Shown here: positions 10,130-63,865 of the stretch, piece after piece
Numbering within the stretch: position 1 is the stretch's first letter
Layout of the letters: each line of letters opens with the position of its first letter
Source of the DNA: Candidatus Parcubacteria bacterium
GTDB taxonomy: Bacteria > Patescibacteriota > Patescibacteriia > Patescibacteriales > UBA12465
NCBI GenBank assembly: GCA_023444045.1
Contig: JAEZRQ010000006.1
Location: forward strand, 113,786-177,785
Direction of reading: 5' to 3'
DNA: 64,000 bases
Translations under genes and position numbers: made by a program
Notes under the pieces: generated by a model
The model's input: the letters and a program-made list of their open reading frames with translations, nothing else
Told to the model about the DNA's origin: nothing
Database searches by the model: none

Positions 10130-10915
10130 TTAAATAAAGAGGAAGCCTAAGATAATTAAGCCTAAGATAACACGGTACCAAGCAAAGATTTTAAAATCAT
10201 TTTTTTGAACGTATTTAATTAGGAACTTAACGCCAATAATAGCCGTAATAAAAGAAACCACAAAACCAATTAACCAAACCACCAAAGTATCACTACTAAT
10301 AATATTAGGATTTTTGTAAATATCTAGAACAGTTGCTCCTAGCATGGTCGGAATAGCTAGGAGAAAAGAAAATTCTACAATTGTTTTTCGCTTAATCCCT
10401 TGTGCTAAACCGCCAACTATAGTGGCACCAGAGCGGGAAACACCAGGAATCATCGCAATTGCTTGTACGGCCCCTAAAATAGCGGCTTGTTTGTAAGTAA
10501 TTTTCTCTAAATCTAAATCACTGGCATCTTCTTTGATATTTTTTTTGGCATACCAGTTTTCAAACAGAAAAATAATAATACCGCCAATAATTAGAGTAAT
10601 AGCAATTACTAACAGGCTCTCCATTAAATAATTCTTTACTATTTTATAAAAAATTAAACCAATAATTGAAGTGGGGATAAAGGCGGCCGCTATTTTCCAA
10701 ACAATATTTACATTTTGCCAAACTCGCTTCCAGTACAAAATCACAACGGAAAATATTGCTCCTAATTGAATAGAAATCATGAAGCTTTTTAAAAATTCGC
10801 TACTAGGGATTTTTAAGAGTTCGCCCGTAATAATTAAATGAGCGGTTGAAGAGATTGGTAGAAATTCGGTTAAACCTTCAACAACACCCATGATTAAGCT
10901 TTGGATAATGGTCAT
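10130..10915 (-). CDS. uppP: Undecaprenyl-diphosphate phosphatase
   Basis: Polytopic membrane protein with BacA/UppP motifs (EFLPISSTAHL, PGVSRSGATI). Confidence 0.93.
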   Translation of the reverse strand: MTIIQSLIMGVVEGLTEFLPISSTAHLIITGELLKIPSSEFLKSFMISIQLGAIFSVVILYWKRVWQNVNIVWKIAAAFIPTSIIGLIFYKIVKNYLMESLLVIAITLIIGGIIIFLFENWYAKKNIKEDASDLDLEKITYKQAAILGAVQAIAMIPGVSRSGATIVGGLAQGIKRKTIVEFSFLLAIPTMLGATVLDIYKNPNIISSDTLVVWLIGFVVSFITAIIGVKFLIKYVQKNDFKIFAWYRVILGLIILGFLFI

Positions 10916-27804: not shown

Positions 27805-28653
27805 ATGGATTTATCAGTAATCATTGTTTCTTGGCAGTCTAGGGAAAAATTAAGAGCAAATCTTAAGGCTTTGTTTAATTCTCAAGGAGATTTTACCTAT
27901 GAAGTCTTTGTTGTGGATAATAATTCTAACGATGGAACGGTTGCCATGGTACAAACAGAATTTTCTCAAGTTCATTTAATTTCTAACTTAGAAAACTTAG
28001 GTTTTGCTAAAGCTAATAATCAAGCTATTTCAAAGACTAAAGGGGACTACATTCTATTATTTAATCCGGATATGCTTGTCGGTGGTGATACATTATTTAA
28101 GGCGCTTTCTTGGGCAAAAAATAATCAACAGGCAGTTGTTTCCGGCTTTAAATTAACTGATCAAAATCAAAATATTATTAAACAGGTTAGAAAATTTCCT
28201 ACACTTCTAGATCAGTTAGCGGTGGTTTTAAAAATTCCGCATTTTCTGCCTTCGGTTTTAGATAAATATTTGGTGAAAAATTTTGATTATGAGAAAACAG
28301 CTAAGGTTGATTCCATTAGGGGCGCCTTCTTTTTAATCAATAAAAAACGTTGGCAGGAAATATCCGGCGAAAATTTTCCACTTCTTGATGAGAGATATTT
28401 TATTTGGTTTGAGGAGGTTGATTTTTGTAAACAGGTTTATCAGAGGGGTGGGGAGGTTTGGTATAGTCCGGAGGCTACCTGTGTTGACTATGTCGGTTTT
28501 AGTTTTAATCAAGTGAGTATTAAGACTAAACAAATTTATATTAGAGACTCAATGTTAAAATATTTTAGGAAGTGGCATAAAACATGGGAGTATAATCTAC
28601 TTAAAGTAGCTTGGTGTTTGGTAACTTCAGTTATTAAAATTTTTGTTAAATAA
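27805..28653 (+). CDS. Family 2 glycosyltransferase
   Basis: GT-A N-terminus (LSVIIVSW...VVDNNSNDGT...NLGFAKANNQA...FNPD) and a D/ExD-like EEVDFC. Confidence 0.88.
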   Translation: MDLSVIIVSWQSREKLRANLKALFNSQGDFTYEVFVVDNNSNDGTVAMVQTEFSQVHLISNLENLGFAKANNQAISKTKGDYILLFNPDMLVGGDTLFKALSWAKNNQQAVVSGFKLTDQNQNIIKQVRKFPTLLDQLAVVLKIPHFLPSVLDKYLVKNFDYEKTAKVDSIRGAFFLINKKRWQEISGENFPLLDERYFIWFEEVDFCKQVYQRGGEVWYSPEATCVDYVGFSFNQVSIKTKQIYIRDSMLKYFRKWHKTWEYNLLKVAWCLVTSVIKIFVK

Positions 28654-28654
28654 A

Positions 28655-29716
28655 ATGTCTAAAGTTGGAATCATCTTAGTTAATTATAAAGATTACGCCA
28701 AGAAATATTTAGCGGCTTGCCGGACTTCTTTGCTTACTCAAAAATATTCTGATTTTACAGTTTATTTAATTGATAACGCTTCTTCGCCTGAGTCCCTTTC
28801 TTATCTAAGAGAGCTTTATCCGGAGGCAATAATTTTGCCTCGTGAAGATGGTAATTACTGTGCGGCTAATAATTTAGGTATGGAGAGGGCGATTCTAGAT
28901 GGTTGCGAATATCTAGTCGCCGCTAACATGGATACCGAATTTGAGCCTGATTGGCTTAAGCACCTGGTCTTAGCCCTAGAGAACAATAAAGATGCCGGTA
29001 TTGCTCAGTCTCTAATATTACTTTACCCAAAAAACGAGGTAGAAAAAAATAATCCCAAAATTAATACTACCGGTAATTTAATCCATTTTTTATTTTTTGG
29101 TTTTACTAATCACTATAATCTTGATAGAGCAAAGGTAAAGATAGAAGAATATTCAGATATCAGCTATGCTTCTGGTTGTTCGTTTATTGTTAGAGCTAAA
29201 ATTTTTAAAGAAATCGGTGGTTATGATGAGGATCTCTACATGTACCATGATGACCTGGATTTTAGTTTAAGGGCTAAATTAGCCGGTTACCGCGTTATTA
29301 TTGCCCCTCAGTCGCTTGTCTGGCATAAGTATGAGTTTGAAAGGAGCGTCAGGATGCTCTATTATATGGAGCGAAACAGGGGGCTGACTTTTTTTAGTTT
29401 TTACCCGTTAAAAACAATTATATTTTTATTCCCAACTTTTTTATTAATGAGTTTAGGGATGACTATTTTTGCCTTAAAATCCGGCTGGTTAAAAACAAAA
29501 ATAAAAGTAGATTTATATTTTTTAAAACCAAGCACCTGGAAACTAATTAAAGAAAACAGAAAAAAGTACCAAAGATTAGGGGCAAATAAATTATCTGAGA
29601 TTGGCCAGTCTTTTTTAGGAAAAATTAATTTTCAGGAGATTGATAATCCCATCCTAAAATATTTTGTTAACCCAACCTTTAACCTTTATTGGTGGTTAAT
29701 TAAAAAAATTATTTAA
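28655..29716 (+). CDS. Family 2 glycosyltransferase with C-terminal TM segments
   Basis: VGIILVNYK...LIDNASS...HDDLDFSLR motifs, C-terminal hydrophobic helices. ATG 28655 chosen. Confidence 0.88.
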   Translation: MSKVGIILVNYKDYAKKYLAACRTSLLTQKYSDFTVYLIDNASSPESLSYLRELYPEAIILPREDGNYCAANNLGMERAILDGCEYLVAANMDTEFEPDWLKHLVLALENNKDAGIAQSLILLYPKNEVEKNNPKINTTGNLIHFLFFGFTNHYNLDRAKVKIEEYSDISYASGCSFIVRAKIFKEIGGYDEDLYMYHDDLDFSLRAKLAGYRVIIAPQSLVWHKYEFERSVRMLYYMERNRGLTFFSFYPLKTIIFLFPTFLLMSLGMTIFALKSGWLKTKIKVDLYFLKPSTWKLIKENRKKYQRLGANKLSEIGQSFLGKINFQEIDNPILKYFVNPTFNLYWWLIKKII

Positions 29717-29719
29717 TTT

Positions 29720-30499
29720 ATGGATTTATCTATTATTATAGTTAATTACAAAAGTAAAGATAAACTAATTTCTTGCTTAGAATCAATTAAGCAAGTTGAT
29801 TTAGGAAACCTAAAATATGAGGTGGTAGTGGTTGAAAATAATTCTGGTGATGATTTAAGTGATTTGTCTTATCCTAATTTCAAAACTATCATTAGTGCCG
29901 TTAATTTAGGTATGGGTGGCGGTAATAATTTAGGTATTAAGAATTCCGCTGGTGAATTTATTCTAATTTCTAATCCAGACATTGTTTTTACTAAAGATAG
30001 TATTTTGGCTTTATATAATTATCTAAAAAATAATAAACAAGTTGGTTTAATTGGCCCTAAACTTGTTTATCCAGATGGTTCTTTGCAATATTCCTGTGTC
30101 CGTTTCCCTAAGTTTTATACTCCGCTTTTAAGAAGAACGGCTATTGGTGAATTATTTCCTGGATTAATAGATCACTATTTAATGAAGCATGATGGGCATG
30201 AAGAGATTAAAAAAGTAGATTGGCTTTTGGGAGCCTGTTTTATGGTTAGACGCTCTGATATAGAAGATCAGCTTTTTGATGAACGTTATTTTATGTATTT
30301 TGAAGATGTGGATCTTTGTCGTCAAATTAATATGAGGGGTCAAGAGGTTGTTTACTATCCCTTAGTTAAGGTAATTCATAATCATGCCAGACAAAGTGCA
30401 CTGCTTCCTTGGTACACATCCTTAATAAAAAATAAAATTGCTAGAGAACATTTAAAATCAGCCTTCAGATATTTTAATAAGTGGCGCAAAATAAAATAA
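29720..30499 (+). CDS. Family 2 glycosyltransferase
   Basis: LSIIIVNYKS...VVVENNSGDD...NLGMGGGNNLG...SNPD...FEDVDLC. Confidence 0.88.
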   Translation: MDLSIIIVNYKSKDKLISCLESIKQVDLGNLKYEVVVVENNSGDDLSDLSYPNFKTIISAVNLGMGGGNNLGIKNSAGEFILISNPDIVFTKDSILALYNYLKNNKQVGLIGPKLVYPDGSLQYSCVRFPKFYTPLLRRTAIGELFPGLIDHYLMKHDGHEEIKKVDWLLGACFMVRRSDIEDQLFDERYFMYFEDVDLCRQINMRGQEVVYYPLVKVIHNHARQSALLPWYTSLIKNKIAREHLKSAFRYFNKWRKIK

Positions 30500-30503
30500 A
30501 TAT

Positions 30504-31382
30504 ATGAGAGAAGTAAAAAAAGTTATTATGCCGGTTGCTGGTTTTGGTACTAGGTTTTTACCAGCTACTAAAGCCCAACCTAAAGAAATGCTTCCAGTGG
30601 TTGATAAGCCGGTTATTCAATATTTAGTAGAACAAGCTTCTGAGGCAGGAATTAGTGAGGTTATTTTTGTGACTGGGCGAGGGAAGAGGGCGATTGAAGA
30701 CCATTTTGATTATTCTTTTGAGCTATCTAAAACACTGGTTGAAAAAAATAAATTAGATTTAGTTAAAAAAGTAGAGGCGATTGAGCGCTTGGCGAAGTTT
30801 TCTTATGTCAGGCAAAGTATTCCGCTTGGCGATGGCCATGCTATTAACTGTGCTGCTCATCTTGTCCACGAAGACGAACCGGTATTAATCATGTTTGGTG
30901 ATACCTTATATGATGCTGAGGTTTCACCAGTTAAACAATTACTAGAGGCTTATAATAAATATAAGTCACCAATAATAGGTTTAGCTGAAGTTGATATTAA
31001 TGAATTAAGTAAATTCGGTGTTATTGATGGCGTAGAGGTTGAAGAGAATGCTTTTAAAATAAATAAATTTGTTGAAAAACCATTAGCTGACGAGGCTCCG
31101 TCTAATTTAGTAGCCGTTGGTCTTTATATAATTACTCCAGAGATTTTAAGTATTTTAAGGAACATGCACCATGGTAAAAGTGGTGAAATTAGATTAGCGG
31201 ATGCTTTTGATGAGTTTCTCTCATCGGGCGGCTCTATTTATGGTTTAAAGTTAAAAGGGGAGTGGCTTGATACCGGTAACAAATTTAATTTTATTAAAGC
31301 GACTTTAAAGTTAGGAATTAAAGATCGGGAAATTGGTGGTGATTTAAAAAAACTAATTAAAGACTTAGCTTCTAAAATATAA
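30504..31382 (+). CDS. galU: UTP--glucose-1-phosphate uridylyltransferase
   Basis: N-terminal VIMPVAGFGTRFLPATKAQPKEMLPVVDKP signature. Confidence 0.92.
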   Translation: MREVKKVIMPVAGFGTRFLPATKAQPKEMLPVVDKPVIQYLVEQASEAGISEVIFVTGRGKRAIEDHFDYSFELSKTLVEKNKLDLVKKVEAIERLAKFSYVRQSIPLGDGHAINCAAHLVHEDEPVLIMFGDTLYDAEVSPVKQLLEAYNKYKSPIIGLAEVDINELSKFGVIDGVEVEENAFKINKFVEKPLADEAPSNLVAVGLYIITPEILSILRNMHHGKSGEIRLADAFDEFLSSGGSIYGLKLKGEWLDTGNKFNFIKATLKLGIKDREIGGDLKKLIKDLASKI

Positions 31383-32751: not shown

Positions 32752-34014
32752 TTAATCTATTCTTTGAATTTTGGCCCCAATTTTTTGTAATCTAGACTCT
32801 AACTGTTCATAACCGCGGTCTATTTGATAAATATTATCAATTTCCGTCACTCCATCAGCGATTAATCCGGCAATAACTAGGGCAATTCCCGCTCTTAAGT
32901 CGGGACTGATTAGGCGCTTACCCTGTAGTTTACTGGGCCCTTGAATAAGAATACGATGAGGGTCACACATTGTAATGTTAGCACCCATTTGTGAAAGCAT
33001 ATCAGTCCAAATTAAACGGCGGTCATAAATAGTCTCGTGAATTAGTGAAGCTCCTTGTGCTTGAGTCATCAAGACTACATAAGGTGATTGTAAATCAGTA
33101 GCGAAACCGGGATATTCATGGGTTTTGATGCTTTGAGCTTTTAGTACTCCACTTTTTTTTACTTGAATCCAGTTTTTACCCCATTCCAAGTTAACCCCCA
33201 CCTTCTTCAAAATAGTTAAAAGGGTCATGACATGTTCAGGATTGCAGTTGGTAATTTTGAGTTCGGCTTTAGCAGCAGCTGCCATGATGACAAACGATCC
33301 AGTTTCAATGCGGTCAGGGATAACTGTAAAAGTTCCAGCATTTAATTTTTTACAACCTTCAATGGTAATTGTTGGTGAGCCAGCGCCTTTGATTTTGGCT
33401 CCTTGTTTATTTAAATATTCAGCTAGTGCTTCAATTTCTGGTTCCATGGCGCAGTTTTTAAGAGTGGTCTTCCCGGGAATTAGGGAAGCGGTCATTAACA
33501 TACTTTCAGTGGCAGTAACACTAACTAAAGGGAAAAAATAGGTTGCTGGTTTTAGTTTCTGGGCTTTAATGTGGTAATACTGACCAGATTTTTCAGTTAC
33601 TTCAGCACCGAAGGCTTTATAACCATCAATAAAAAGATCAATTGGTCGCCCACCAGCACCAATAACACAACCTCCGGGGTGGGGAAACTTTACTTCCTTA
33701 AATCTAGCTAACATCGGACCAACAAACATAATAGAGCCCCGGAATTTATCTGCTAATTTTCTTTCTAGTTCAGTGGTCTTTATTTTTTTAGTATCAATTA
33801 TGGCGACATTTTTGTGACGAGTAACACTAGCGCCCATTGATTCCAGCAACTCTAAAGAGCGATCTACGTCTTCAATTAGGGGTAGATTTTTAATAGTGAT
33901 TGGTTTTTCAGATAAAATTGCTGCAGGGATTATCTTGATAGCAGAATTTTTAGCTCCCTTAACAGTAATTTCACCAGATAGTGGGGCTCCGCCAGTAATT
34001 AGGAATTTAGGCAT
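32752..34014 (-). CDS. murA: UDP-N-acetylglucosamine 1-carboxyvinyltransferase
   Basis: Full-length MurA (GGAPLSGEITVKGAKNSA...; active-site loop HPGGCVIGAGGRPIDL). Confidence 0.97.
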   Translation of the reverse strand: MPKFLITGGAPLSGEITVKGAKNSAIKIIPAAILSEKPITIKNLPLIEDVDRSLELLESMGASVTRHKNVAIIDTKKIKTTELERKLADKFRGSIMFVGPMLARFKEVKFPHPGGCVIGAGGRPIDLFIDGYKAFGAEVTEKSGQYYHIKAQKLKPATYFFPLVSVTATESMLMTASLIPGKTTLKNCAMEPEIEALAEYLNKQGAKIKGAGSPTITIEGCKKLNAGTFTVIPDRIETGSFVIMAAAAKAELKITNCNPEHVMTLLTILKKVGVNLEWGKNWIQVKKSGVLKAQSIKTHEYPGFATDLQSPYVVLMTQAQGASLIHETIYDRRLIWTDMLSQMGANITMCDPHRILIQGPSKLQGKRLISPDLRAGIALVIAGLIADGVTEIDNIYQIDRGYEQLESRLQKIGAKIQRID

Positions 34015-47816: not shown

Positions 47817-50456
47817 TTAAATAACACTAACTACCAACTCTTCTTCCTTTTCTTTATTAATTTCTATCTTTACCTTATCACCTTCTTTAACCTTACCCTC
47901 AATGATTTCTAAGGCTAGTTCATCAAGTAATAATGTTTGAATAACTCTCTTAAGCGGTCTGGCGCCATAGGTTGGGTCATAGCCTTTCTCGGCTAACATC
48001 TTTTTTACCTTAGGCCCTATTTTTAAAGTAATATTTTTATTATGAAGTCGGCTTTCTACTTTTCTAAGCTCCAAATCAACAATCTTTTCTAGCGCTTCCT
48101 TACTTAAGCTTTTAAATAAAACAATCTCATCAATTCTATTTAAGAACTCTAATTTAAAGTGATCACGTAAGATTTTATCAATCTTGTCTTTCATTTCTTC
48201 TTGGCGCAGATTGTTTTTGTCATCATTTTCCCCAACATTAAAGCCGATAGTATATTGCTTAATAATTTCGTTGCCTAAATTAGAGGTCATGATAATAATA
48301 GTATTTTTGAAGTTAACTGTTCGCCCCTTAGAATCTGTTAGCCGACCATCATCTAAAATCTGGAGTAGCATATTAAAGGTGTCTGGGTGAGCCTTTTCAA
48401 TTTCATCGAACAAGACCACAGAGTAAGGGTGACGTCTAACCCGATCAGTTAATTGTCCGCCGTCATCATGTCCGATATAGCCAGGAGGTGAACCGATTAA
48501 TTTAGCAACTGAGTGTTTTTCCATAAACTCACTCATATCAATTCTGATTAAAGAGTTTTCGTCATCAAAAATAAAACGAGCCATTGCTTTAGCTAATTCA
48601 GTTTTACCAACACCAGTCGGACCGACAAATAAAAATGAGCCAATTGGTCTTTTCTCCTCATTAATACCAGCCCGTGAGCGGCGAATAGCGTTAGAAATAG
48701 CTTTGATGGCTTCATCTTGGCCAATAACTTCGTTTGTTAAAACTTTTTCAGCTTCGCCTAATTTTTTGGCTTCGGAATCTAGCATTCGTTGAGCGGGAAT
48801 ACCAGTCCAACGAGCCACTACTTTGGCAACATCTTCTTCATCAACTTCTTCTTTAAGGATTCTTTGCCCTTTCTTCTGAATCTTAATTAATTCATCTTGA
48901 AGTTTGGTGATATTATTTTCTAATTCCGGAATCAAGCCATATTTTATTTTCGCTACTTCTGTTAAATCTGATCCCTGTCTTTGGATTATTTCGGCTTTTG
49001 TTTTTAATTCTTCTATTTCTTTTTTAGACTTTCTAATATCGGAAATAATATTTTTTTCATTACTCCAATGTAGTTCCAGCTGAGATGATCTCTCCTTAAG
49101 TTGAGCTAGTTCTTGGTTTAGAGTTCGCAATTTGCCAGTTTTTTTATCGGCGGTTAAAATCGCCGCCTTATTAATTTCTAGCTGTTTTATTTTTCTTTTT
49201 AACTGATCAAGTTCTTCTGGCATAGAATCAATTTCCATGCGTAGGGAAGAAGTAGCTTCATCAATTAAATCAACAGCTTTATCAGGTAAAAAGCGATCGC
49301 TGATATAGCGGTTTGATAATTTAGCGGCCGCAATTAAAGCATCATCAGTAATTCTCACGCCGTGATGTACTTCATATTTTTCTTTTAAACCACGGAGCAT
49401 ACTAACAGTATCTTCTACACTCGGTTCATTAACTAAAATCGGTTGGAAACGTCTTTCCAGGGCCGCATCTTTTTCAATATATTTCTGGTATTCTTTAGTG
49501 GTGGTGGCGCCAATTGTTCTCAGTTCTCCTCGAGCTAAAGCTGGTTTTAACATATTAGAGGCATCCATTGCTCCTTCGCTAGCTCCGGTTCCCACTAGAG
49601 TATGAAGCTCATCAATAAAGAGAATAATATTGCCGTTATGTGATTTCACTTCTCTAAGCACCGCTTTTAAACGGTCTTCAAATTCGCCACGGAATTTAGC
49701 TCCCGCTACCAAAGCCCCTAAATCAAGAGCAATTACTTCTTTATTTTTTAAATTCTCAGGAACATCACCGGTAATAATTCTCTGAGCCAAACCTTCAACA
49801 ATTGCTGTCTTTCCGGTTCCTGGTTCTCCAATTAAAACTGGATTGTTTTTAGTACGGCGGAGTAGGATTTGCATAATACGACGGATTTCTGTATCACGTC
49901 CAACTACTGGATCAAGCTTTTCCTGTCTGGCCAGTTCAGTGAGATTGCTAGTGTATTTTTCTAAAACATTTATTTTGTTTTCTTGGTGTTGATCGGTAAT
50001 TTTAGAATCCCCCCTTAACTCCTTTAAAACTTCTTTAACAACCTGATATTCAGCTTTAAAGTTAAGTAAGATTCTTTGAGCAGTTGATTCTACGCCAATT
50101 AAGCCCAACAGGATGTGTTCGGTAGAAATAAATTCGTCGCCCATACCATCAGCTTCTTTTTGAGCTCTTTCTAAAATCATCACTGTTTCATTGGTTCCAG
50201 ATACCGCTTGAATTGGCCCTTCACTCATTCTAACTTTTTCTTTAGGGAGTTTGTTTATTTCTCGGTTGGCAGCATCCTCAATCATGTCCGGATCAACCTT
50301 AATTTTTTCTAGTAGTGGCTTAATGAGACCCTCGTTTTGTTGGAGCAGGGCTAGTAAAATATGCACCGCCTCAATATTTTTTTGGCCATTGGTGGTAGCA
50401 ATAATTTGAGCATTGATAATAATTTCTTGTGACCTATCAGTTAATTTATTAAACAT
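47817..50456 (-). CDS. clpB: Hsp100/Clp disaggregase, ClpB-like (two AAA+ modules, long coiled-coil middle domain)
   Basis: Clp_N domain. D1 Walker A GEPGTGKT and Walker B ILFIDELH. About 125-aa coiled-coil M-domain. D2 Walker A GPTGVGKT and Walker [11 protein letters not shown]. Also carries an IGF tripeptide (48240-48248) in a ClpC-like insert. Confidence 0.93.
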
Positions 50457-50544: not shown

Positions 50545-50586
50545 TCCCCACTTTTTGTGATATACTTAAATAAATTAATTAAAATT

Positions 50587-50949
50587 ATGGATTATAATTT
50601 TCTTACTCATTTTGGGAAGGTTTTGTGGCAGGTAATCTGGGACTTTATTTACTTTCCGTTGTGGTGGTATAGCGCTGGTCTTTTAAGAATAATTAAAAAA
50701 ATTAGTAATTTTTATCGCCACCGTGAAGAATCTTTAGCTCTGACTATCTGGCTGAAAAATATCTTTACTCCAATGTATGGACAGTGTGATTTTTCTGGTC
50801 GTCTAATCTCGTTTCTTATTCGCTTCGTTCAGATAATTTGTAGAGGTTTTTTAATGTTGTTAAACATACTTTTAGGCTTAGCTTTTTTAATTTTTTATCT
50901 ATTACTACCACCAGCAATTCTACTGGGTATTTGGAAACAAATTTTTTAA
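50587..50949 (+). CDS. Small polytopic membrane protein, hypothetical
   Basis: About 120 aa with 3-4 hydrophobic/aromatic helices. Ends 3 nt before the membrane-anchored Clp paralogue. ATG 50587 preferred to GTG 50557. Confidence 0.6.
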   Translation: MDYNFLTHFGKVLWQVIWDFIYFPLWWYSAGLLRIIKKISNFYRHREESLALTIWLKNIFTPMYGQCDFSGRLISFLIRFVQIICRGFLMLLNILLGLAFLIFYLLLPPAILLGIWKQIF

Positions 50950-50952
50950 AAT

Positions 50953-53631
50953 ATGAATGAGGAAAAATTAACTTTTGAATATAATGAAAAAATAAAGAGA
51001 ACAGGCCTCTGGTATTTAGGTTGTTTTTTATTTTTTAGTCTTACTTTAAAAAAATCGCTGATTACTTTAAATAAGACCTTAAAATTAATTAGAAAAGTAG
51101 TTGATTTTATTGCTTTTTTTATTGCCGCTTTAGGGTTGGTGGCCCTTGTCTGGTTTATTTATGAGCAGCGTTTACTTATTATTAGTACGCCGCTTTATTT
51201 ATTAAAACCGGAGTATTACCAGCACCCCTTGTTATTAGTTTTTTTGCTCAGTCTAATCTTTGATTTATTTTTATACTATCGTTTCAGTTTAAGAAACGAT
51301 CAGAAACAAAAACTGGATTATAATAAATTAAAGATTGATGAAACCAGTGGCCAATTTAAGAAAGTAAAACAATTTAATTTTGCTAACGCTTTAGATGAAG
51401 AGTCTCTAGGTGTTATTGAAGAAGCTTATATTTTAGCCGTTAAATTAAAACAAGCCGAGGTGACCCCGCGCCACATTTTTCGGGTGTTGTTAAAGAATAG
51501 AAAAATCCAAGCTTTATTTATTCGTTTGGGAGTAAATATTAATTCTCTAGTTGAGAAGCTAGATCGTAATTTATTAAATGATAGTAGTTTTTCTAAAAAA
51601 CCAGTGCTATCTGCTAAGACAAAAGAGCTAATTGTTTTAGCGGGACTAGAAGCTTATAAAAGAAAGCAGGAGGCAATTAGGGTACTTGATTTAACTTGGC
51701 CTTGTTATTCCCAAGATGAGGTTTTAGCTGAGGTTTTATATGATTCAGAAGTAGATGAAAATAAAATAAAAAATGTTATCGCTTGGTTTAGGGTCAACGA
51801 AGAATTACTTAAGAATTATCAAGAATATCACCGGGCGGCTATTTTAAAGCCTTGGGGCAATATGAATAGGGCTTATACGGCGGTGGCCACTCCAACCCTT
51901 GATCATTTTTCTAGTGATCTAACAATGTTAGCTCGGGCTGGAAGATTGGATTTATGTATTGATAGAGTTAAAGAATTTACCGCCATTTTTGATGCCTACT
52001 CCGGAGGGCAATCTGGTGTTTTATTAATTGGTCCTACGGGTGTTGGTAAAAGAACTATTGTTGAGGGACTGGCACAAATGATGGTTAAAGAAAGTGTGCC
52101 AAAATTTTTGCAAGACAAGCGTTTAGTGGAGCTTGATGTGGCGGCCTTGGTTTCTGGTGTTTCGCCGGCTGAAGCTCAGGAACGTCTGCTTATTTGTATC
52201 AATGAAGTTAATCGTGCTGAAAATATTGTGCTCTATATTCCTAATATTGAAAATCTCATGGGTATTACTTCCGGTAGTGAAGAAAGCTTAGAACTATCTG
52301 AAGTATTATCAAGTGCTCTTAACAAACAGGCTCTATTTTGTATTTCCACCACTACTACCGAAAATTATTCTCGTTTTATTGAGGGCAAGTCTCTGGGTGA
52401 AGCAATGACAGCGATTGGCGTAGCTGAACCTAACTTTAATCAAACTATTCAGATTCTTGAAAGTAAAGCTGGCTCTTTTGAAGCGCAATACGGTATTTAT
52501 TTAACCTATGACGCTTTAGAAAAAACCGTCACCTTATCCAACAAGTATCTAAGGGAGAGCAGTAATCCTCTTAAGGCAATAAATTTATTACAAAAAGCGG
52601 CCGCTATTTCTAATAAGGAGGCTCGCAATAATCCTGATAAAGTGATTTGTGACGGTGAAGTGGTAGCATCAGCTATTGAAGATTTAACCGGTATCCCCGC
52701 CAGCAAAGTTTCAGAAAACGAAAGACAAAAATTAATCAACTTAGAAGCTAGTATTCATGCCCGCATGATTGGACAGGAGGAGGCAGTTAAGGTTGTTTCC
52801 GCTTCACTGCGCCGAGCTAGGGCTGATCTTAAAGATAGTTCCAGGCCGATTGCTAGTTTTTTATTTTTAGGGCCAACTGGTGTTGGTAAAACGGAACTGG
52901 CAAAAAGCGTTTCGGAAATTTACTTTGGTTCAGAGGATTATATGATCCGTTTGGATATGAGTGAATACCAAGAAGCAAATAGTGTGACAAAAATGATTGG
53001 TGGTGTCGATGGTACTCTTGGGTATTTAACTGAAGCAGTGCGTAAAAAACCATTCGCTTTGATTTTGCTTGATGAAATTGAAAAGGCTAATCCGGATATC
53101 TTAAATCTATTTTTACAATTGCTTGATGATGGCCGTTTAACCGATGGGCAGGGGAGAACGATTAATTTTTCTCAATCAATTATTATTGCGACTTCTAATA
53201 TCGGCTCTATTTTAATTCAGGATGGTATTAAGCAGAATTTAGATATTAATATTATTAAACAGGAACTAATTGATAATCAGTTAAACAAGTACATGCGGCC
53301 GGAGCTTATCAATCGTTTTGACGGCATCGTGGTCTTTAAACCATTAACGGAAGAAAACCTTATGGCAATTGCTACTTTAATGCTGAAAAAAATCAAGAAA
53401 AGTTTGGAGAGTAAAGGTATTAGTTTAAAAGCTGATAAAGAAGGGGTCGCGATTTTAGCTCGGGCTGGTTATGACCCAAAGTTTGGCGCTAGACCGCTAC
53501 GAAGACTTTTACAAGAAAGAGTGGAAGATGAAATTGCTAATTTACTTTTAGCTAATAAATTAAAGAGGAGAGATACGGTTTTAATAAATTCTGATGGTAG
53601 TATAGGTGTAGAAAAGGGTCGGGAGTTATAA
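50953..53631 (+). CDS. Membrane-anchored Clp/Hsp100-family AAA+ protein with degenerate first ATPase module
   Basis: About 115-aa N-terminal region with three TM helices, then Clp_N repeats. D1 has GPTGVGKR but VLYIPNIENL in place of Walker B hhhhDE (IPN at 52237-52245), and lacks the ERRF Arg motif. No coiled-coil M-domain. D2 is intact ([29 protein letters not shown]). Confidence 0.85.
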   Translation: MNEEKLTFEYNEKIKRTGLWYLGCFLFFSLTLKKSLITLNKTLKLIRKVVDFIAFFIAALGLVALVWFIYEQRLLIISTPLYLLKPEYYQHPLLLVFLLSLIFDLFLYYRFSLRNDQKQKLDYNKLKIDETSGQFKKVKQFNFANALDEESLGVIEEAYILAVKLKQAEVTPRHIFRVLLKNRKIQALFIRLGVNINSLVEKLDRNLLNDSSFSKKPVLSAKTKELIVLAGLEAYKRKQEAIRVLDLTWPCYSQDEVLAEVLYDSEVDENKIKNVIAWFRVNEELLKNYQEYHRAAILKPWGNMNRAYTAVATPTLDHFSSDLTMLARAGRLDLCIDRVKEFTAIFDAYSGGQSGVLLIGPTGVGKRTIVEGLAQMMVKESVPKFLQDKRLVELDVAALVSGVSPAEAQERLLICINEVNRAENIVLYIPNIENLMGITSGSEESLELSEVLSSALNKQALFCISTTTTENYSRFIEGKSLGEAMTAIGVAEPNFNQTIQILESKAGSFEAQYGIYLTYDALEKTVTLSNKYLRESSNPLKAINLLQKAAAISNKEARNNPDKVICDGEVVASAIEDLTGIPASKVSENERQKLINLEASIHARMIGQEEAVKVVSASLRRARADLKDSSRPIASFLFLGPTGVGKTELAKSVSEIYFGSEDYMIRLDMSEYQEANSVTKMIGGVDGTLGYLTEAVRKKPFALILLDEIEKANPDILNLFLQLLDDGRLTDGQGRTINFSQSIIIATSNIGSILIQDGIKQNLDINIIKQELIDNQLNKYMRPELINRFDGIVVFKPLTEENLMAIATLMLKKIKKSLESKGISLKADKEGVAILARAGYDPKFGARPLRRLLQERVEDEIANLLLANKLKRRDTVLINSDGSIGVEKGREL

Positions 53632-53649: not shown

Positions 53650-55212
53650 ATGGTTTTTTTGGCAGCATTTTTGCTATCTTTGTTTTTAACAATCGCTCTT
53701 ATCCCAGTCTTAAAAAAGATAGCGCTTAAATATCAGATTGTAGATCAGCCTGATTTTGTAAGGAAAATTCATTCTAAAACAATCCCACTCTTAGGTGGAG
53801 TTGCGATTTTTATTGCCTTTTTTGCCGTCATCTTTTTATTTTCTGATCAGATTTTGCAAGGTGATTTAAGACTATCTCACTGGCTTGGCTTCTTGATCGG
53901 CGGTCTTTTTTTGATTGTCGGCGGTATTTTTGATGATAAATATAATTTAAGTCCAAAAATCCAAATTATTTTTCCCATTCTAGCAGTCATTTCTGTTTTG
54001 TTGGGTGGAGTGGAAATAGCCAAACTTTCTAATCCGGCCGGTGGTACTTTTAATTTATCGGCAATCAGTTGGTTTTCGCCACTTTTTATTTCTTTGTGGT
54101 TGCTGGGGATGATGTATACCACTAAACTGCTTGATGGGGTTGATGGTTTAGTCGGCGGCGTTTCCTCTATTGGTGCTTTAGTGATTTTCTTATTTACTCT
54201 AACCACAAAATATTATCAACCAGATATTGCTTTTGCTTCTTTGGTTTTGGCCGGAGCAATTTTAGGTTTTTTGATTTTTAATTTTAATCCGGCTTCTATT
54301 TTCTTGGGAGAGGGCGGGGCTTTATTTTTGGGTTATACCCTGGGGGTGTTAGCGATTATCTCTGGCGGCAAAATCGCTATTGCTCTACTTGTGATGGGGG
54401 TGCCAATCTTAGATGTCGCCTGGACAATTATTCGTCGTCTACTGGCAGGAAAAAACCCTTTTAAAGCAGCTGACAAAAAACACCTGCATCATCGCTTACT
54501 TGATTCTGGTCTAAGCCAAAAACAAACAGTCTTTGTCTTTTATTTTTTAGCGGCTGTTTTTGGGGTTTCCGGTTTATTCTTGCAGAGCCAAGGGAAGATT
54601 ATTTTTTTAGGGGGCATTGTGGTGCTAATGTTTTTACTGGTTATCTTTTTGTCACTTGTTGTTAATAAGAAAAAAAATAAACCAACCCTTTTACTCCATG
54701 TCTGTTGTGCTCCTTGTAGTGCTTATATAATCAAGGAAATTTTAAGCAAAGATTTTAAAGTAACAATTTATTTTTATAATTCTAATTTGTCTTCAGAAGA
54801 GGAATATGACGCTCGTTTAAAATGGGTACGTTTTATAGCTGATATTTACCAGCTAGATTTAATCATTGAACCGTATCAGCATTCTAATTGGTTAAGTAGA
54901 GTAAAGGGCCACGAAACTGACCCAGAAAAGGGAACTCGTTGCTTAATTTGCTATGAGGACCGTTTAGAAAAAACCGCTTTACTAGCCAAAGAAAAAAACT
55001 TTAATTATTTTTCTACTAGTCTATTAGTTTCCCCCTATAAGGATAGGGAGGCATTATTAAGAATTTCTAAACAACTGGCCGTAAAACATCAAGTTAATTT
55101 TTTAAATGAAGATTTTAGTTCCGAGGGCTTATACCGTAAGTCGCAAGATTTAGCTAAAGAACTTGGTGTTTATCGCCAAAAGTTCTGTGGCTGCGAATTT
55201 AGTAAACGTTAA
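53650..55212 (+). CDS. Fusion: MraY/WecA-type polyprenyl-phosphate sugar-1-phosphate transferase (GT4) plus QueH-like epoxyqueuosine reductase (DUF208)
   Basis: N-terminal ~335 aa are polytopic with MraY/WecA-like motifs (IFDDKYNLSP, LLDGVDGL, NPASIFLGEGGALFLGY). C-terminal ~180 aa carry QueH signatures LLLHVCCAPCS, RCLICYEDRLEKTA, YRQKFCGCEFS. Junction at an A8 run (54670-54677). Confidence 0.85.
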   Translation: MVFLAAFLLSLFLTIALIPVLKKIALKYQIVDQPDFVRKIHSKTIPLLGGVAIFIAFFAVIFLFSDQILQGDLRLSHWLGFLIGGLFLIVGGIFDDKYNLSPKIQIIFPILAVISVLLGGVEIAKLSNPAGGTFNLSAISWFSPLFISLWLLGMMYTTKLLDGVDGLVGGVSSIGALVIFLFTLTTKYYQPDIAFASLVLAGAILGFLIFNFNPASIFLGEGGALFLGYTLGVLAIISGGKIAIALLVMGVPILDVAWTIIRRLLAGKNPFKAADKKHLHHRLLDSGLSQKQTVFVFYFLAAVFGVSGLFLQSQGKIIFLGGIVVLMFLLVIFLSLVVNKKKNKPTLLLHVCCAPCSAYIIKEILSKDFKVTIYFYNSNLSSEEEYDARLKWVRFIADIYQLDLIIEPYQHSNWLSRVKGHETDPEKGTRCLICYEDRLEKTALLAKEKNFNYFSTSLLVSPYKDREALLRISKQLAVKHQVNFLNEDFSSEGLYRKSQDLAKELGVYRQKFCGCEFSKR

Positions 55213-55215
55213 ACT

Positions 55216-55800
55216 ATGAAGAAAAAAGTTTTAATTCTTTTAATTTTATTCTTAATCGTTCTTCCTGTTTTAACAAAGGCGGAAAGTGTTGATACGGATA
55301 ATGATGGTCTAAGTGATGACTTGGAATTAATTTTTAAAACTGACCCAAATAATCCTGATACTGATGGTGATGGTTTTTTAGATGGCCTAGAAGTAGATTG
55401 GGGTTACGACCCTCTCTCTGATTCTAAAATTAAGTTACCCCAAAAGATAGAAATAGACTTAAAAAAACAAAAAATGTATTATTTTGTTTCTGGCGTTAAA
55501 TGGAAAGAATTTATTGTTTCTACTGGTAAAATTAGTATGCCCACCCCTAAAGGAACATTTTCTATTAAAAATAAAATTCCTAAGGCTTGGTCAAGAACTT
55601 ATGGTTTATGGATGCCTTATTGGATGGCTATTAATGGCCCAATAGGAATTCATGAGTTGCCAATTTGGCCCGGTGGTTATCGTGAAGGTGAGAATCATTT
55701 AGGCAAGGCCGTTTCCCATGGCTGTATTCGTCTGGGAACCCAAGCTGCCCCTTATTTGTTTGACCGAGTAATCGTGGGGACGCCGGTAGTTGTCTATTAA
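55216..55800 (+). CDS. Secreted L,D-transpeptidase (YkuD domain) with thrombospondin type-3-like Ca-binding repeats
   Basis: Signal peptide. DTDNDGLSDDLE and DPNNPDTDGDGFLDGLE repeats. YkuD catalytic motif SHGCIRL. Confidence 0.88.
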   Translation: MKKKVLILLILFLIVLPVLTKAESVDTDNDGLSDDLELIFKTDPNNPDTDGDGFLDGLEVDWGYDPLSDSKIKLPQKIEIDLKKQKMYYFVSGVKWKEFIVSTGKISMPTPKGTFSIKNKIPKAWSRTYGLWMPYWMAINGPIGIHELPIWPGGYREGENHLGKAVSHGCIRLGTQAAPYLFDRVIVGTPVVVY

Positions 55801-63778: not shown

Positions 63779-63865
63779 GGAGAGTTCGCATAGTGGTCGA
63801 GTGCGCTCGCTTGGAAAGCGAGTAAACCCTAACCGGTTTCAAGGGTTCGAATCCCTTACTCTCCG
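63779..63865 (+). tRNA. tRNA-Ser (anticodon GGA), long variable arm, no encoded CCA
   Basis: Acceptor GGAGAGT/ACTCTCC, anticodon arm CTCGC-TTGGAAA-GCGAG, long variable arm, T arm AAGGG-TTCGAAT-CCCTT, discriminator G. Confidence 0.92.

Follow-up and report, generated by a model that had tools for sequence, protein, structure and literature searches.

A QueH domain carried on a WecA-like membrane transferase in a clade of Patescibacteria

The window analysed here, a stretch of 64,000 nucleotides (nt) from Candidatus Parcubacteria bacterium (assembly GCA_023444045.1, contig JAEZRQ010000006.1, positions 113,786 to 177,785 of the forward strand), encodes in a single open reading frame (ORF) a polytopic membrane transferase of the GT4 type followed by QueH (DUF208), the epoxyqueuosine reductase of tRNA queuosine (Q) synthesis. 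This fusion is genuine, anciently fixed and conserved, with both domains intact, and it belongs to one Falkowbacteria-type clade of Patescibacteria. The genes of the window and its nearest relatives place the genome itself in this Falkowbacteria-type group. Each domain is of a known family, and the novelty lies in the architecture. Why join an envelope enzyme to a tRNA-modification enzyme? We think it probable, with moderate confidence, that a canonical epoxyqueuosine reductase is here tethered to the membrane, and that its chemistry is independent of that of the intact WecA-like transferase that carries it.

An earlier note, made from the letters of this DNA alone, had read a GT4-type transferase and QueH in one ORF, and Pfam profiles match both domains within an uninterrupted frame of 520 amino acids (aa). 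The parts of the protein are listed below; residues called invariant or conserved, here and throughout, are so among 80 fusion proteins.

53650..55212, + strand: whole fusion ORF, 520 aa, ATG start, TAA stop; 1563-nt coding sequence (CDS)
53650..54663, + strand: PNPT / GT4 (WecA-like) membrane domain, aa 1-338 (Pfam PF00953, TIGR02380, AlphaFold2 model, Foldseek)
53932..53937, + strand: D95-D96, the DD motif at the cytoplasmic end of transmembrane helix 3 (TM3); invariant
54133..54144, + strand: D162-G-V-D165, the DGxDG motif; invariant
54310..54312, + strand: E221 in IFLGEGG, an invariant Glu in the fusions and the same in the standalone proteins P0123, P0125, P0126 and P0141
54481..54492, + strand: H278-L-H280-H281, the HxHH motif in the last cytoplasmic loop; H278 and H280 invariant, H281 at least 90% conserved
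54664..54687, + strand: Lys-rich linker NKKKNKPT, aa 339-346; variable across relatives
54670..54677, + strand: A8 homopolymer in the linker Lys codons (read from the sequence)
54688..55209, + strand: QueH (DUF208) domain, aa 347-520 (Pfam PF02677, phmmer to 7lc5, Foldseek)
54703..54717, + strand: C352-C353-A-P-C356, the CCxxC metal-ligand motif; invariant (aligned with 7lc5)
54940..54951, + strand: C431-x-x-C434; invariant
55186..55194, + strand: C513-G-C515; invariant

The C-terminal half aligns with the QueH profile over its full length, as the signatures LLLHVCCAPCS, RCLICYEDRL and YRQKFCGCEFS, all of them present, had led the earlier note to propose. PF02677 matches residues 347-520 at model positions 1-174 of 175 (E 2.1e-59; 201 bits against a cut-off of 23.5), and standalone or VanZ-fused forms score 203-220 bits. 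A phmmer comparison with Thermotoga maritima QueH (PDB 7lc5) gives E 6.8e-27. In the AlphaFold2 model, which answers the call for a structural check of the active-site and Fe-S residues, the fold superposes on the same entry (Foldseek TM-score 0.89, root-mean-square deviation 1.6 A over 176 columns, 35% identity) and all seven cysteines are kept. These seven (C352, C353, C356, C431, C434, C513 and C515), expected as ligands of a [4Fe-4S] cluster and an adjacent iron, are invariant. C356 aligns to Asp13 of the T. maritima protein, and the third ligand position reads CCAPC in the fusion clade, CC(A/V/I)GC in other Patescibacteria QueH and CCAPD in T. maritima, so the third ligand varies between Cys and Asp within the family. 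Judged by its residues, the domain most likely still reduces epoxyqueuosine to queuosine on tRNA in an iron-dependent manner.

The N-terminal half, which had been described as an MraY/WecA-like transferase of about 335 residues, belongs to the superfamily of polyprenyl-phosphate N-acetylhexosamine-1-phosphate transferases (PNPT) and stands nearer WecA than MraY (135 versus 67 bits). Glycos_transf_4 (PF00953) matches aa 78-238 with E 2.6e-28 and 99.5 bits against a Pfam cut-off of 27. The NCBIfam models TIGR02380 (WecA; 134.9 bits over aa 9-335, equivalog cut-off 326.05) and TIGR00445 (MraY; 66.8 bits, equivalog cut-off 192.05) both score below their cut-offs, and we therefore call this half a WecA-like member of the superfamily rather than a demonstrable WecA. 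D95, D96, D162, D165, H278 and H280 are invariant. The third catalytic Asp, that of the (F/L)xGDxG motif, is replaced by Glu221, a conservative change common to the whole clade; in MraY, WecA and TagO we take the equivalent position to be a catalytic Asp. The Glu of IFLGEGG recurs throughout the Patescibacteria GT4 clade, in fused and standalone proteins. By Foldseek, the modelled transferase half reaches TM-scores of 0.74-0.80 against MraY structures and 0.65-0.66 against DPAGT1. Its most likely role remains the initiation of a lipid-linked glycan of the envelope.

Where the QueH domain lies relative to the membrane bears directly on its function. The AlphaFold2 model, built on 80 sequences (mean pLDDT 86, pTM 0.69), shows 11 long helices up to residue 338 and then an alpha/beta domain. 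With the DD, DGxDG, E221 and HxHH motifs set on the cytoplasmic side, as they are in WecA and MraY, the loops hold 13 Lys and Arg residues inside versus 5 outside and the C-terminus falls inside. An independent line comes from triple fusions, in which a TSP3-YkuD L,D-transpeptidase part follows QueH: they hold exactly one extra hydrophobic helix between QueH and that part, and a single added helix before a transpeptidase that is necessarily extracytoplasmic argues for a cytoplasmic QueH. By this topology, QueH sits on the cytoplasmic side, right at the inner membrane face. In a Rossmann-like sheet, strand 1 begins on the side away from the active-site end, so a 7-residue tether at that point should leave the active site facing the cytoplasm and accessible to tRNA; it would point away from the membrane.

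The QueH domain looks fully canonical and is cytoplasmic, and a bona fide tethered epoxyqueuosine reductase is the most likely interpretation. The transferase, with 11 transmembrane helices and with its active site and C-terminus in the cytoplasm, would carry QueH on a Lys-rich linker of about 7-8 residues; QueH would reduce epoxyqueuosine on tRNA while held at the inner membrane face, and the transferase would start its lipid-linked glycan independently beside it. The two chemistries are probably independent.

Could two separate genes have been joined by a homopolymer miscount? The earlier note had listed an assembly or frameshift artefact among its explanations, since the junction falls on a run of eight A at 54670-54677. 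That position is exact: the run lies in the codons AAT AAG AAA AAA AAT AAA, which encode N339-K344 of the linker, and A7 or A9 in its place would end the transferase frame at aa 360 or 344, respectively. The CDS, A8 included, is nevertheless identical in all three contigs read (ERZ28596294 scaffold_4, 542 kb; ERZ24910825 NODE_16, 230 kb; ERZ28597312, 2.5 kb), which belong to distinct ENA assemblies that name their scaffolds differently; five contigs on record encode the very same 520-aa protein. Relatives have linkers of different sequence, and the longest homopolymer in the 60 nt before their QueH motif is 3 to 8 nt long, mostly 7 nt or less (66 loci measured); the reading frame is therefore independent of the A-run. 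Nor does a start codon for a separate queH lie nearby, as the note had observed: M327, the only in-frame Met upstream of the QueH domain, falls inside the last transmembrane helix (TM11), so the window holds no separate queH start. The A-run is the expected outcome of Lys codons in an AT-rich genome (the window has a GC content of 35%), in a positively charged cytoplasmic linker. Identical sequence in three assemblies, together with fusion across nearly all relatives on different linkers, refutes the artefact, to which we assign a vanishingly small probability.

Two further ways of obtaining separate products from this ORF were considered and rejected. An internal QueH start at M327 would begin within TM11, and this Met is equally conserved in standalone GT4 proteins. 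Programmed slippage on A8, giving a transferase-only product, fails as a conserved mechanism, given the range of homopolymer lengths at the junctions of relatives.

The fusion is widespread among related genomes, and it is not the case that close relatives always encode the two domains separately. More than 120 protein clusters hold both domains at full coverage, with 59-92% identity. In a species survey with one genome per GTDB species, 412 stretches encode relatives; among the best 80 of these 412, each from a different species, GT4 and QueH share one uninterrupted ORF in 78. At a coarser scale, the 1.84 billion representatives at 50% identity include two full-length fused proteins, P0122 (535 aa) and P0121 (784 aa), plus one two-domain fragment; the matches that follow comprise standalone GT4 proteins (340-370 aa, 36-60% identity) and their fragments, together with GT4 proteins joined to other partners, and the same list holds one standalone QueH at 50% identity. 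So few fused representatives, followed by standalone proteins, mark the fusion as the property of one fairly narrow clade. Many of the species-representative genomes that carry this Patescibacteria-type locus (among L012-L090) are titled 'uncultured Gammaproteobacteria bacterium' (TPA assemblies), and L047 and L077 are titled Planctomycetota and Bacillota; these titles are probably taxonomic mislabels or reflect mis-binned contigs.

How did the two genes come together? In the outgroup locus L092, on a 1.27-Mb contig, the order is Clp-type ATPase, GT4, VanZ, QueH, and the outgroup L006 differs by a NifU gene between Clp and GT4 and a DJ-1 gene between GT4 and VanZ. In both, the VanZ and QueH genes share 20-32 nt, read in different frames. 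P0123 (locus L003), the standalone GT4 nearest to the fusion at 60% identity, is followed by VanZ, with no QueH in the block. The linker segment KP-x-LLLH equals the N-terminus of standalone QueH proteins, so at the junction TM11 simply runs on into what was once the start of QueH. The fusion arose from neighbouring genes: a conserved row GT4 - VanZ - QueH would have collapsed into GT4-QueH, with loss of VanZ and of a stop codon. In the remaining two of the 80 species the genes are split again, at 11048-11062 of L026 and at 1720-1731 of L057, by a single in-frame TAA with an ATG 2-3 codons on; the genes abut, and the QueH products are complete. On a neighbour-joining tree rooted on L092 and L006 and computed without bootstrap, both loci nest deep within the fused clade beside fused sisters. 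One ancient fusion with occasional secondary fission is the most economical reading of these sequences.

Has the QueH domain been retained for use, or is it a non-functional relic carried along by the transferase? Q modification is dispensable in many bacteria, and the nearby standalone-GT4 lineage L003 does without QueH in its block, both of which speak for a neutral passenger. Conservation speaks otherwise. Over the 80 proteins, mean pairwise identity is 0.68 in the GT4 half and 0.60 in QueH, versus 0.37 in the linker, and QueH has 29 invariant columns, all seven Cys among them, versus none in the linker; both halves are therefore under purifying selection. The Pfam match is full length, and the domain is kept in all 80 species, 78 times fused and twice as a split gene. 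A relic is thus a highly improbable explanation.

The transferase is not the only membrane protein that QueH has joined. With a standalone Patescibacteria QueH as reference, 54 of its 120 closest clusters are VanZ-QueH fusions of about 300 aa, known from database entries alone (for example P0272, P0329 and P0374). At least two distinct routes have thus led to QueH sitting on the cytoplasmic C-terminus of a polytopic membrane protein, which suggests that tethering is at the least well tolerated and possibly selected. Of the three explanations first entertained, namely a membrane-anchoring device, a moonlighting DUF208 domain and an artefact, anchoring is the best supported, by the cytoplasmic topology and by these independent fusions in sister lineages; moonlighting is neither favoured nor disfavoured by the results. 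The recurrence of anchoring argues that tethering is possibly adaptive. That two lineages have re-split the fusion, that QueH also exists on its own and that the GT4 C-terminus takes several partners argue, for their part, that the covalent linkage is not essential. VanZ fused to QueH, or overlapping it, is found at L091 10001-10918, L006 5727-6561 and L092 9703-10558.

The locus is prone to fusion, and the C-terminus of this GT4 is a recurrent, general fusion site. The downstream TSP3-YkuD gene is fused on behind QueH in 9 of 79 loci and is a separate adjacent gene in 47 of the 79, the window among these; the resulting triple fusions GT4-QueH-TM-TSP3-YkuD are 730-795 aa long (P0059, P0064, P0072, P0087, P0088, P0101, P0107 and P0121). 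Standalone-type GT4 relatives at about 38-46% identity carry DUF192/COG1430 at the same C-terminus (P0141, P0176, P0177, P0186 and P0232), and P0208 bears a GT2 glycosyltransferase domain there. At L038 (9980-11650) the fusion ORF runs past QueH and, as far as the locus extends, encodes a type-IV-pilin-like N-terminus (NPAFTLIELLVV...); its QueH ends in YRQKYCACEFS, with Ala in place of Gly between the last two Cys.

The genes on either side belong to a conserved block:

50953..53631, + strand: Clp/Hsp100-type AAA+ ATPase, upstream of the fusion (Pfam, synteny)
55216..55800, + strand: TSP3-repeat / YkuD L,D-transpeptidase with a signal/anchor helix, beginning 3 nt past the fusion stop (Pfam)

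In the window and in relatives the block runs Clp - [GT4-QueH] - TSP3/YkuD - Beta_propel - DUF5656 - PDZ - PGK, and this setting bears on a Rosetta-stone alternative, functional coupling, under which a QueH-like Fe-S domain works with the envelope machinery rather than, or besides, maturing tRNA. It might act on a non-tRNA substrate tied to the lipid-linked glycan, or it might serve as a redox or iron sensor that regulates the transferase. The order GT4 - VanZ - QueH is kept across distant Patescibacteria, QueH has been fused independently to two envelope-related membrane proteins, and the gene that follows, for an L,D-transpeptidase, is at times part of the fusion. The same block, however, also holds genes that are clearly unrelated (Clp ATPase, PDZ protease, PGK, GatCAB), and shared gene order is therefore no specific sign of function here; the GT4 C-terminus accepts DUF192 and GT2 too, QueH also occurs alone, and two lineages have split the fusion again. 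The QueH domain scores as a typical member of its family and retains every ligand, and we know of no alternative substrate for that family. Coupling is therefore, in our estimate, unlikely.

Three observations do weigh against an ordinary tethered reductase, and the coupling reading draws on them too. The linker of 7 residues is very short and keeps QueH very near the cytoplasmic face of the transferase. Across Patescibacteria, QueH is found consistently with genes of the envelope and membrane (GT4, VanZ, YkuD) and not with queuosine genes, a linkage that could be functional. And tblastn with E. coli Tgt and QueA (from NC_000913) found neither tgt nor queA near QueH in any of 97 loci, a search of 1.70 Mb that covers fusion neighbourhoods only and a small part of each genome (the 64-kb window with 10-kb extensions on each side on the source scaffold, and about 1.6 Mb of flanks from 96 loci of relatives). 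The same queries find Tgt at 48-93% identity in control loci from viral-contig scans, a positive control; those scans, made with Tgt or a Tgt motif, returned ordinary bacterial Tgt genes only, none of them from the candidate phyla radiation (Patescibacteria). QueG is not present in the 64-kb window. Queuosine synthesis ends, once Tgt and QueA have acted, with the step catalysed by QueH or QueG (PMC10723273, PMC9508795); a survey found no case of tgt lost while later queuosine genes were kept (PMC10723273), and the genes for Tgt, a QueH-like protein and a bacterial-type QueA lie together in DPANN archaea (PMC8204110). On these two precedents tgt would be expected in the fusion-bearing genomes.

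A stronger form of the coupling idea would make the Patescibacteria QueH-type Fe-S domain an obligate membrane partner of envelope proteins (VanZ, the WecA-like transferase, the L,D-transpeptidase), whose role would go past the maturation of queuosine on tRNA or replace it. The domain might, for example, act on a lipid-linked or other non-tRNA substrate, or couple iron or redox status, or the tRNA modification state, to envelope synthesis. We regard this as a long shot, somewhat more doubtful than coupling in general. Were tgt and queA absent from fusion genomes, this would be the first member of the QueH family with a non-queuosine function, and an absence of tgt would turn the linkage to envelope genes into a strong lead to that new function. 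The tethered reductase with independent chemistry nonetheless remains the interpretation we favour.

Other genes in and around the window complete the setting. The upstream Clp-type ATPase has several hydrophobic segments resembling transmembrane helices in its first ~120 residues, and its first AAA module scores weakly; an unannotated ORF of 120-130 aa precedes it at 50557-50949 and, together with the Clp gene, is kept beside GT4 across Patescibacteria. A second, canonical ClpB-like gene lies at 47817-50456 on the opposite strand. Three apparent GT2-type glycosyltransferase ORFs stand in a row at 27805-31382, followed by a GalU-like nucleotidyltransferase (assigned by eye). UppP/BacA lies at 10130-10915 (Pfam-confirmed on the source scaffold) and a MurA-like gene at 32752-34014 (assigned by eye from its N-terminus). 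At the window end, a tRNA with a long arm (63779-63865) adjoins a region just beyond (L121 10829-13001) with a phage-type integrase, a Rep-like gene and about ten ORFs without Pfam matches, which is probably an integrated mobile element.

What might a membrane-bound QueH be for? To our knowledge, QueH has been described only as a small, soluble enzyme of tRNA modification, and we know of no physiological electron donor for it. Here, a clade of ultra-small, host-dependent bacteria keeps it on a membrane enzyme, and sister clades keep it on VanZ, which makes a natural system for asking whether membrane location matters to QueH, through iron-sulfur assembly, reductant supply or local tRNA pools, or whether a second function exists. 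The locus also illustrates cleanly how genes in streamlined genomes fuse and part again step by step, from separate genes through overlapping, fused and triple-fused forms to re-split ones. Our literature search found no paper on the GT4-QueH or VanZ-QueH architecture, nor on queuosine in Patescibacteria, and the supplements of the DPANN and Bartonella papers hold no Falkowbacteria entries. The GT4-QueH architecture, common as it is in public data, is thus apparently undescribed, as is membrane-attached QueH in Patescibacteria generally. Database names for these proteins are inconsistent ('QueH', 'GlcNAc-1-P transferase', 'VanZ family', 'hypothetical'), and mending them would be of practical use.

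Set beside known systems, each half of the protein is familiar. The transferase shares with WecA, TagO and MraY the polytopic fold and the DD, DGxDG and HxHH motifs, in an 11-helix WecA-like layout; it differs from them in having Glu221 for Asp and a soluble enzyme domain at its C-terminus. The QueH half has the fold of the T. maritima enzyme (PDB 7lc5/7lc7/9deu), with the ligand motifs CCxx(C/D), CxxC and CxC common to both, and with the conserved blocks FYN.N, SP.K and YRQ..CGC present in each. Described QueH proteins, however, are small and soluble, of about 180-190 aa, whereas here the domain sits on an enzyme with 11 transmembrane helices via a linker of 7 residues. QueG, the cobalamin-dependent epoxyqueuosine reductase, catalyses the same reaction with an unrelated fold and unrelated cofactors. 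The nearest parallel is VanZ-QueH, which lies in the same syntenic block and likewise bears QueH on the C-terminus of a polytopic membrane protein through an equally short, K/R-rich linker (...KPKLLLHICC...); its anchor, however, is a small VanZ-like protein of ~4 helices rather than a transferase, and it stems from a separate, independent fusion event.

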